From IMG/VR virus record IMGVR_UViG_3300035211_000102: a stretch of DNA of 22,906 nt. One strand, 5' to 3'. The stretch comes from a virus. The notes below the pieces were generated by a model that saw only the letters and a program-made list of their open reading frames with translations, did no database searches and was not told the DNA's origin. Both the position numbers and the translations under genes were made by a program. Positions 8,374 to 9,710 of this stretch are shown piece by piece (the first letter of the stretch is position 1; every line of letters starts with the position of its first letter).

Positions 8374-8565
8374 CTACAGCTCTTCTACCGGCTCGTCGTA
8401 CTCGACACTCTTCGGACCATCAGCCTTCTCCTCAGTCTTCTCCTCAGTCTTCTTGTCATCCGAGCCACCCGTGAGCTTGTCACATACCGGTATCGCAACC
8501 GATGCCAGAATGCCTACTATCACAATGACAATCATCAGCTCTATCAACGTAAATCCCCTTTTCAT
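8374..8565 (-). CDS. prepilin-type N-terminal cleavage/methylation domain mini-protein (64 aa)
   Basis: MKRG|FTLIELMIVIVIVGILASVAIP is the canonical type IV (pseudo)pilin class-III signal with Glu+5. GGAGGAG RBS before the ATG at 8565. The track ORF extends further 5' to 8646. The C-terminal tail is acidic and contains a KTEEKTEEK repeat. Confidence 0.6.
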   Translation of the reverse strand: MKRGFTLIELMIVIVIVGILASVAIPVCDKLTGGSDDKKTEEKTEEKADGPKSVEYDEPVEEL

Positions 8566-8753
8566 CTCTCCTCCTCTACTTTCCAGTATTGTAGTATCGA
8601 ACCATCTTGGTCCTACACCCTTCGCAACAGCAACCAAGATCGTCAAAATTGTCTTTCTGCCATTCGTACGGCTTCTTGCACGAAAAGCATCTCCTGGTCT
8701 CAGTTGTCCGGCCCTTCCCCTTGGACTTTTTCCCCTTCATACTTGACACCTCG

Positions 8754-9710
8754 TCAATATTTCTCAGAAATCCAGTATTCTACCTCGTTCATAACGAATT
8801 CGTGGATCTCGGTATACCTCGGCTTCGATGGCAGAGGAGTCTTCTCAGCCGCTTTATCGATGTCAGCTTCAAGCCCCCTCGACATCTCTATAATCTCATC
8901 TCGCGAGTACTTCCCTCGCTTCACGTCGAGTATCAGGTCCGCCCTCTCCATTGGAAATTTCAGGCCGCCCGTGCTCACGATCTCTACCCCTTCCAGGAGC
9001 ATCTGAATCAAGTTGCTAGCAAATTTGCAATCAAACCCAAATTCCTCCCACATCTCAACCCTGGATCCCACCCGGTTAATCCGGTCCGCAATGGTCCTCA
9101 TCGCCTTCTTCACCTGGATACTTCTCTCCAGGAAGATATCGCCGATCTTGATATGCTTCCCTGGACCCTGGTCCTCAAACGGAATCCCAATACCATGAAT
9201 CGCGTTGACCAGAATGTCTTTCGGATCCTTTCTCGACAGCAGCTTCTCAGCCTCCTTCAAATGTCTGTAGTTCCCAGGCTTCACGTCCATCTTCTTGAGC
9301 TGACTCATCGCGTAGCCCTTGAACCTACGGATGCACGCAGCATGCGGGAACAACATCTTCTTCGCCCTCAGGCTCGCCCCGTACCACCCCTGAAACATCA
9401 CATTCTCGTCATTCGCGAAAAGGATGTTCATGATATTCGGATTGTTCTCCAGTGCCAGAAGATAGAAATCTCGATACTCACGGATTTTGTAGTCAACCGC
9501 GTCCGATGTGTTCCGCCCGGTCTCGTCCTTGGAAGTAATACCAAGATCGACCTCCCTGCACCTACCGAACCCGAACACGAGACTCTTGTCCGGCATAAAG
9601 ATCCCCTCGTAGTCGAGATCGCTCTCCGGCGTATTCGTCCCAAATAGATGAGATCCCACTCTCACCTTCAGGATCAAGTTCTCCTTGGCCAGTCCGCTGT
9701 AGTCCGCCAT
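8754..9710 (-). CDS. minimal Pol-beta-superfamily nucleotidyltransferase
   Basis: 318 aa. VGSHLFGTNTPESDLDYEGIF matches the hGS-x9-13-DxD NTase motif. The downstream NPNIMNILF resembles the predicted-nucleotidyltransferase family common in phages (from memory). Confidence 0.65.
   Translation of the reverse strand: MADYSGLAKENLILKVRVGSHLFGTNTPESDLDYEGIFMPDKSLVFGFGRCREVDLGITSKDETGRNTSDAVDYKIREYRDFYLLALENNPNIMNILFANDENVMFQGWYGASLRAKKMLFPHAACIRRFKGYAMSQLKKMDVKPGNYRHLKEAEKLLSRKDPKDILVNAIHGIGIPFEDQGPGKHIKIGDIFLERSIQVKKAMRTIADRINRVGSRVEMWEEFGFDCKFASNLIQMLLEGVEIVSTGGLKFPMERADLILDVKRGKYSRDEIIEMSRGLEADIDKAAEKTPLPSKPRYTEIHEFVMNEVEYWISEKY

Follow-up and report, generated by a model that had tools for sequence, protein, structure and literature searches.

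IMG/VR virus record IMGVR_UViG_3300035211_000102 holds a 22,906-nucleotide stretch of DNA (the window, analyzed over its full length) in which a gene for a nucleotidyltransferase (NTase) lies upstream of a very small gene whose product begins like a type IV prepilin. The locus raises the question of whether these two genes act together and, if they do not, what the small protein does. An earlier note, made from the sequence alone, proposed two readings. Either the small protein is a phage-encoded decoy or poison that enters the assembly pathway of the host type IV pilus or type II secretion system (T2SS), or the two proteins form an NTase plus transmembrane (TM) effector module resembling a minimal cyclic-oligonucleotide-based antiphage signaling system (CBASS). 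The analysis leans toward two functionally unrelated phage genes in one tight same-strand row, an RlaP-family NTase gene and a gene for a mini-pilin that would interfere with type IV filaments.

A headless type IV prepilin and its family

The small gene occupies positions 8374..8565 on the minus strand. It begins with an ATG at 8565, has its stop codon at 8374..8376, and encodes 63 amino acids rather than the 64 reported in the earlier note. The N terminus, MKRG|FTLIELMIVIVIVGILASVAIP, consists of a 4-aa basic leader followed by a hydrophobic helix, and is exactly the type IV prepilin leader that had been read there. The class III signature is complete, with G-1, F+1, and E+5 (MKRG|FTLIE), plus G14 and P22 of the mature numbering (G18 and P26 of the mini-pilin) within a hydrophobic alpha1-N helix. 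The protein scores 36.1 bits against Pfam N_methyl PF07963 (cut-off 21.2; E 4e-9) and 39.9 bits against TIGR02532 (cut-off 16.3). The description of a 37-aa acidic tail without a globular pilin domain also stands. The 37 residues past P26 contain 13 Asp/Glu and 6 Lys/Arg for a net charge of -7, and they match no pilin head domain in Pfam or NCBIfam, so there is no globular alpha/beta pilin head. The 35 residues after C28 are acidic and low in complexity and end in DEPVEEL. The AlphaFold2 (AF2) model has a helix at residues 7-31 and coil in the remainder, with a predicted local distance difference test score (pLDDT) of 55-60. A 12-bp tandem repeat of 2.8 copies (8420..8453; Tandem Repeats Finder) encodes the KTEE-KTEE of the tail. 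The codon-usage score of the gene is +0.38 per codon, on par with that of the NTase gene (+0.33). A chance open reading frame (ORF) was considered as the origin of the small gene and rejected. Judged from its sequence, the mini-pilin is a real gene that encodes a headless type IV prepilin, with a prepilin motif well above chance.

Mini-pilin orthologues are found in the related loci L001, L095, L211, and L255. The gene is kept in a 188-kb relative, and its indels are all in-frame. The L001 orthologue has 53 amino acids and is 43% identical to the window copy, whereas the neighbors of the two copies are better kept (76% for the NTase and 66% for a homologue of major vault protein, MVP). The 12-bp repeat explains the difference in length, which appears as a 9-codon indel in the alignment. 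Between the window and L001, the first 27 codons have a nonsynonymous rate (dN) of 0.19 versus a synonymous rate (dS) of about 1.8, which indicates purifying selection. The tail has a dN of 0.73 versus a dS of 0.51 and is not under purifying selection. Both tails are still in frame and retain a net charge of -7 and a C-terminal EPVE motif.

A first word-index search with the 63-aa protein gave only 4 matches, and a family profile was then used. The profile retrieved proteins of 51-60 aa in about 19 clusters at 90% identity, and their contigs measure up to 188 kb. The family is rare; its members of 51-63 aa fall, at 50% identity, into about 5 clusters. When 1.84 billion cluster representatives were searched exhaustively, only 5 full-length matches emerged among 320,874 generic prepilin N-termini. 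The family alignment has invariant G, F, T, and E residues and an acidic C-terminal motif, [DE]E[NP]V.E[ML]. Every subtype ends acidic, in DEPVEEL, EEPVEM, EDENVIEM, or EDVIIVE. The family was found in one clade only, composed of phages of roughly 65-190 kb that also encode an MVP homologue. The carriers are the window, L001/L002, L095/L175/L176/L256, L255, and L211; all but L211 belong to one phage clade, and no RlaP gene is present in the stretch retrieved for L211. L255 has two tandem mini-pilin genes (6001..6159 and 6166..6324) of 52 aa each with divergent tails, which lie between two further genes, A and C, and directly upstream of RlaP.

Genes A and C are the constant company of the mini-pilin outside the window. 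In L001, L095/L175/L176/L256, L255, and L211, the mini-pilin gene always lies between A and C, 40-48 nt upstream of C. Gene A encodes a protein of about 172 aa with an N-terminal TM segment, a coiled coil, and the motif LKKYEWFKD; the L001 and L095 copies are 70% identical. The product of gene C is a lipoprotein of about 170-220 aa with the motif KHLYVISAYSGQVIIYSTVKGKVTSSGKRL. The two genes are located at 7048..7569 (A) and 7887..8549 (C) in L001, with further copies at loci L175-L254. Of 80 metagenome loci, 69 have A and C side by side in one order or the other, separated by small ORFs that vary. The mini-pilin is only occasionally the inserted gene, and at other loci the gap is filled by unrelated small ORFs. 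Neither A nor C belongs to a family in Pfam, PHROGs, or PDB, and C is only weakly similar to a single propeller blade. A search of IMG/VR did not find gene A, and the window contains no homologue of A or C. At 2403..3005 of L192, one C homologue begins with a prepilin-type N terminus (MKRRGFTIVELFVVLAIVAIVVALITCGSGCDKLEE...) where a lipoprotein signal peptide would normally stand, which suggests that prepilin and lipoprotein signals are interchangeable on the C domain.

The neighboring nucleotidyltransferase

The NTase gene (8754..9710, minus strand) encodes a 318-aa protein, and its identification as an NTase was borne out; it is of the Pol-beta type. RlaP PF10127 is the sole Pfam match (53.6 bits; cut-off 23) and is carried by 100 of 100 database homologues. 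Residues 5-312 match phrog_388, "nucleotidyltransferase," at 1.1e-49. Catalytic residues G19, S20, D31, D33, and D73 are invariant in 44 homologues and provide the Pol-beta signature of G[GS] and three conserved Asp. The motif is G19-S20-x10-D31-L-D33 and not GS-x11-DLD as first read. The AF2 model (pLDDT 96) has its NTase domain at the N terminus and a helical domain at the C terminus, closed by the C-terminal helix, which is the RlaP architecture. In published RlaP enzymes an NTase domain is joined to a helical one and three Asp are essential, and T4 NrdC.11 was placed in the same family (PMC12776372). The architecture described for the PfRlaP crystal structure matches the two-domain model of the window NTase. 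The window enzyme also shares a family hidden Markov model score above threshold, the hG[GS] motif, and the three catalytic Asp with the RlaP proteins of P. fluorescens and P. aeruginosa and with T4 NrdC.11. As in the known RlaP systems, it combines an NTase with a helical domain and belongs to a family widespread in large phages. By homology, the NTase is an ordinary RlaP/PF10127 enzyme of the T4 NrdC.11 family.

Homologues of the NTase were detected by tblastn in 1625 phage records, mostly of T4-like and other large phages, and RlaP is the most prevalent RNA-repair NTase among jumbo phages according to Iyer et al. (PMC7824862). Identity to the homologues of cultured phages is 25-29%. A single-sequence search of IMG/VR found no relative, and the IMG/VR relatives were found afterward by profile search. 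RlaP copies at 41-46% identity occur in metagenome-assembled genomes (MAGs) of Thiomargarita and Beggiatoa type. More broadly, homologues at 38-46% identity are common in MAGs of large sulfur bacteria (Thiomargarita, Parabeggiatoa, and Marithrix; L096-L112). The L095 copy matches at 51% and lies on a 65-kb phage-like contig that was binned as "uncultured archaeon." That is the closest label, and host inference from MAG labels is uninformative.

The NTase has no PADLOC match at E<=0.1 and no match in NCBIfam, and a sequence search of a PDB copy that evidently lacks the RlaP crystal structure was also negative. The best PDB matches of its model in Foldseek are 3c18, kanamycin and aminoglycoside NTases, and HalB; CdnC is at rank 31 with a probability of 0.11. 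Because there are no defense-model matches and no fold match to the cGAS/DncV-like nucleotidyltransferases (CD-NTases), the enzyme is not cGAS/DncV-like. Pseudomonas RlaP enzymes were reported in a 2025 preprint to add 1-2 nucleoside monophosphates to the 3'-OH of damaged RNA (PMC12776372). By homology, the window enzyme would extend damaged RNA, for example tRNA clipped by a nuclease, by 1-2 nucleotides at the 3'-OH, and this 3'-end repair would let the phage sustain translation under an RNase-based host defense. The NTase is one more RlaP enzyme in a large phage, and it adds nothing new.

The two genes are not adjacent because another ORF fills the supposed spacer. The small gene had been placed directly after the NTase gene behind a 107-bp spacer. 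The distance from the NTase stop to the mini-pilin ATG is instead 188 nt, occupied in another frame by a Lys-rich 54-aa ORF with a CxxC...CxxC arrangement (orf54, 8576..8740, minus strand; MKGKKSKGKG..CFSC..CEGC). It begins 13 nt past the NTase stop and ends 10 nt ahead of the mini-pilin ATG. The coding score of orf54 is +0.17 per codon, a GAGGTG ribosome-binding site of its own precedes the ATG by 7 nt, and the ORF was also called by the Joint Genome Institute (JGI) gene caller. It matches nothing in Pfam, PHROG, NCBIfam, or PADLOC and has no homologue in 1.65 Mb of related loci, making it an orphan. The CxxC...CxxC pattern possibly forms a zinc ribbon. The whole 10-nt gap between the orf54 stop and the mini-pilin ATG is filled by the Shine-Dalgarno sequence AGGAGGAGAG (8566..8575, minus strand), as read from the sequence. 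The earlier note had the spacer covered by the 5' extension of an ORF at 8374..8646. That ORF exists, with a 27-codon TTG extension, and the extension has a non-coding score (-0.06 per codon) and lacks a Shine-Dalgarno; the real ATG is at 8565. The 90-aa TTG-start version of the small gene was rejected on these grounds. A 150-aa upstream ORF also has no homologue in any related locus compared.

The association of RlaP with pilin-like genes was examined by scanning RlaP loci in six frames for the prepilin signature, in 80 IMG/VR loci with 4-kb flanks, 80 genome/MAG loci, and L003, L004, and L092-L094. The IMG/VR loci gave a single weak match, a 39-aa ORF in L039 (7116..7235; MNNRGYTIVELLIAITILASITLMGFICYILIHFIIKFW) that has a prepilin-like start followed only by a TM segment; an unrelated RlaP gene lies 2.2 kb upstream of it, and the match may be due to chance. 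Among the genome/MAG loci the signature was found in L095 only, a member of the same phage clade as the window, and it was found in none of L003, L004, L092, L093, and L094. L094 shares the MVP-RlaP synteny yet does not have the mini-pilin. About 165 RlaP loci outside the clade have no pilin-like neighbor, save for the weak 39-aa ORF. In the reverse direction, 80 loci were retrieved with protein A; RlaP is close by in just 2, each from the L095 lineage. The gene order within the clade varies. It is MVP, three genes, RlaP, orf54, and mini-pilin in the window; MVP, two genes, RlaP, A, mini-pilin, and C in L001; and MVP, further genes, A, one or more mini-pilins, C, RlaP, and DUF3268 in L255 and L256. 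The pairing is confined to one clade and only 2 of 80 A loci are near RlaP, and therefore the proximity of RlaP and mini-pilin is synteny by descent with local rearrangement and not a conserved functional pair.

These data dispose of the CBASS-like module in the earlier note. A signaling-and-effector pair of the CBASS or Hailong type would account for the co-orientation and close packing of the NTase and mini-pilin genes and for the cassette adjoining RlaP on either side within the phage clade. Nevertheless, such a pair is hardly credible here. The NTase is an RlaP protein and not a CD-NTase, and PADLOC finds nothing. None of the marks of a CD-NTase system was found, be it a model match, a cGAS/DncV-like fold (CdnC being far down the Foldseek ranking), or a conserved adjacent effector gene. 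A single-helix prepilin is not a known effector type. The genes are parted by an unrelated ORF in the window and by a 173-aa gene in L001, most RlaP loci have no pilin-like neighbor, and 78 of the 80 A-C loci have no RlaP. The Hailong system, which pairs the HalB NTase with the multi-TM channel HalA, was considered and rejected. The resemblance to HalB is at the level of the generic kanamycin NTase (KNTase)/minimal nucleotidyltransferase (MNT) fold, where 3c18, ANT(4'), and HEPN-domain proteins are equal in score.

Candidate roles of the mini-pilin

Short pilin-like proteins of other phages provide the closest comparison. Six virulent Pseudomonas phages encode truncated PilA proteins of ~60 aa, which have been proposed either to be incorporated into the pilus without presenting a phage-binding surface or to inhibit assembly (PMC12952977). 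Short pilin-like ORFs of cultured virulent phages include PAK_P5 gp141c (59 aa), KVP40.0030 (66 aa), and PhiW-14 gp120 (44 aa), and cyanophages have 126-aa "pilin" genes. The mini-pilin N terminus is matched by 162 phage records, and several PHROG families have profiles of just 59-72 positions. Like the truncated PilA-like proteins, the mini-pilin combines a phage-encoded prepilin leader with an alpha1-N helix and no head, and the group as a whole spans 44-66 aa in large, apparently virulent phages. The similarity is limited to the generic N terminus, however. The tblastn matches to phage records are confined to residues 1-36, and the tails of PAK_P5 gp141c, KVP40.0030, and PhiW-14 gp120 are unrelated to that of the window protein. 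The family of the window protein is separate and small, ends in an acidic C-terminal motif, was found only in one uncultured phage clade, and is set in the A-C cassette in relatives. The mini-pilin represents a new, small, and distinct family within the "truncated phage pilin" kind.

Two other phage systems bear on the function. According to Sztanko et al. (2026, PMC12952977), FimU-like minor pilins encoded by prophages become part of the pilus, where they block the adsorption of phages that bind the tip. These P-FimU proteins of JBD68 and F10-like phages are phage-encoded members of the pilin family that enter the host pilus and block superinfection, and they serve as a model for pilus interference by the mini-pilin. 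They differ in being full-length minor pilins of temperate phages, with a globular domain and extra loops, whereas the window protein is headless. The phage PilB inhibitors Aqs1 and Tip share the proposed outcome of type IV filaments disabled to exclude competitors (PMC13436744), but they are soluble cytoplasmic proteins that bind the PilB ATPase and have no likeness to the mini-pilin in sequence or topology.

Interference with the type IV pilus or T2SS is the best hypothesis for the mini-pilin and fits every sequence feature tested; it coincides with the hypothesis already published for truncated phage PilA proteins (PMC12952977). The protein would use its alpha1-N helix to insert into the inner membrane of the host, whose prepilin peptidase would cut it after G4 and methylate F5. 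At the assembly platform of type IV filaments, the mature mini-pilin would then compete with the pilins or pseudopilins of the host. It may be incorporated as a subunit that has no surface for a pilus-binding phage, or it may poison or cap assembly. Superinfecting pilus-dependent phages would be excluded as a result, or pilus and T2SS functions would be silenced during infection. The conserved C-terminal peptide [DE]E[NP]V.E[ML] probably serves as a docking motif. Its likely partner in the relatives is lipoprotein C, encoded 40-48 nt downstream; this partner is absent from the window. We give about an even chance to the proposal that the prepilin peptidase processes the mini-pilin, which then enters the type IV filament pathway and causes exclusion or silencing.

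Three observations weigh against the explanation by two unrelated genes. Unlike known RlaP systems, the window NTase, with its predicted RlaP activity, is not accompanied by an RNA ligase, RtcA, polynucleotide kinase (PNK), or other RNA-repair gene in the 22.9-kb window, which covers only part of a genome of likely 120-190 kb. In favor of the RNA-repair role, a PF09414 RNA_ligase gene lies 4 kb downstream of RlaP in the relative L093. The mini-pilin cassette also stays beside RlaP within the clade despite switching sides; descent and one local rearrangement explain this persistence, although they do not prove independence. Finally, the mini-pilin may work with phage proteins rather than on host pili because all other carriers (L001, L095/L256, L255, and L211) embed it between two envelope proteins, directly upstream of lipoprotein C.

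The last observation leads to the main rival, in which the mini-pilin is a subunit of a phage-built envelope complex. It would form a split pilin-like unit with lipoprotein C, A may take part, and the window copy would be a remnant or a stand-alone version. The recurrence of the order A, mini-pilin, and C at a fixed distance from C favors this idea, as do the adjacency of A and C in most metagenome loci and the prepilin-type N terminus of the L192 C homologue. There is also a precedent in Geobacter, where a short pilin gene stands in an operon with a beta-rich partner gene (PMC6201914). PilA-N of the Geobacter PilA-N/PilA-C pair is a helix-only pilin of ~60 aa encoded directly upstream of that partner, as the mini-pilin is upstream of lipoprotein C. 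It differs in being the host's own major pilin with a long continuous helix, whereas the mini-pilin helix ends near residue 31 and gives way to an acidic coil. The split arrangement of a short pilin gene followed by a partner gene is seen in L001, L095, L211, and L255 but not in the window, which has no C. Yet with A and C missing, the window mini-pilin retains an intact frame, a strong Shine-Dalgarno, and a conserved N terminus. Most A-C pairs lack a mini-pilin and hold unrelated small ORFs in the gap, and neither A nor C matches a known family. We regard the envelope complex as unlikely. A related proposal, that the family is the helix-only half of a phage-encoded split pilin whose acidic C-terminal peptide docks, by strand addition or as a linear motif, on lipoprotein C, or in the window on a host pilus-tip or assembly protein, is a long shot. 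A simpler view holds that the pilin-like N terminus is a mere membrane anchor or export signal on a generic small membrane protein (of the holin/antiholin type or blocking injection) unconnected to type IV filaments. Such a view draws on the very small size of the protein, which has a single helix and a low-complexity tail that evolves fast and includes a slippage repeat. Its N terminus is also a very common module, as the 320,874 cluster representatives attest. However, the signature residues G-1, F+1, T+2, and E+5 are under purifying selection across five divergent subtypes, G14 and P22 are present in the window copy, and a plain TM anchor would need neither E+5 nor a G|F cleavage site. This view is accordingly judged rather improbable.

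With the mini-pilin, the recently noticed class of headless pilins encoded by Pseudomonas, Vibrio, and Delftia phages now reaches into an uncultured clade of large phages. The conserved C-terminal motif and the fixed lipoprotein neighbor in relatives provide handles on whether such proteins poison or disguise the filament. If they do either, receptor replacement or poisoning would have a broader role in superinfection exclusion. Most deserving of attention are the A-C cassette and the possibility of a split pilin. Were the split pilin correct, the phage would introduce a foreign module into the type IV filament machinery of its host, and the widespread A-C pair would be a new phage system acting on type IV filaments or the cell envelope.

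Phage setting and other genes of the window

The window is part of a 25.4-kb JGI metagenome contig. All of its genes are closely spaced ORFs on the minus strand, and the GC skew is about -0.3 throughout. PHROG matches were obtained for 9 of 10 further window proteins tested, including an SNF2 helicase (phrog_62), phrog_1934, phrog_874, and a QueC-like protein, and close relatives share its gene order on contigs of 65-188 kb. The window is therefore a segment of a large uncultured phage. No tRNA genes were found in it. A sigma-70-like promoter candidate (8332..8361, minus strand; TTGACA, 18-nt spacer, TATTAT; 11 of 12 matches) begins 13 nt past the mini-pilin stop codon and may start the next transcription unit and separate it from the row upstream. 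It comes from a consensus scan only, in which the region gave 3 promoter-like sites versus 2.6 expected by chance.

An 892-aa protein (11375..14053, minus strand) matches the MVP Shoulder domain (1.6e-23) and the Vault_3 domain (2.3e-9). It is 54-66% identical to its counterparts in L001 and L094, has further homologues in L255 and L256, and marks the phage clade of the window. MVP homologues in phages were first reported in 2023 (bioRxiv 10.1101/2023.11.10.566534). The QueC-like gene (20416..21103, minus strand) is present as two overlapping ORFs that both match phrog_1550. The ORF at 20768..21103 is the SGGADS PP-loop half and the ORF at 20416..20790 is the C-terminal Cys-cluster half; the split could reflect a frameshift, a pseudogene, or an assembly error. 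A 430-aa protein (16585..17877, minus strand) has ~25 degenerate DQV(W/R/G)xQV heptad-like repeats followed by a DUF6745 domain (7.5e-44). A DnaJ-like protein (6609..7367, minus strand) combines a J domain with several CxxCxGxG zinc-finger repeats, and its homologues are encoded beside or near RlaP in L093 and L094.

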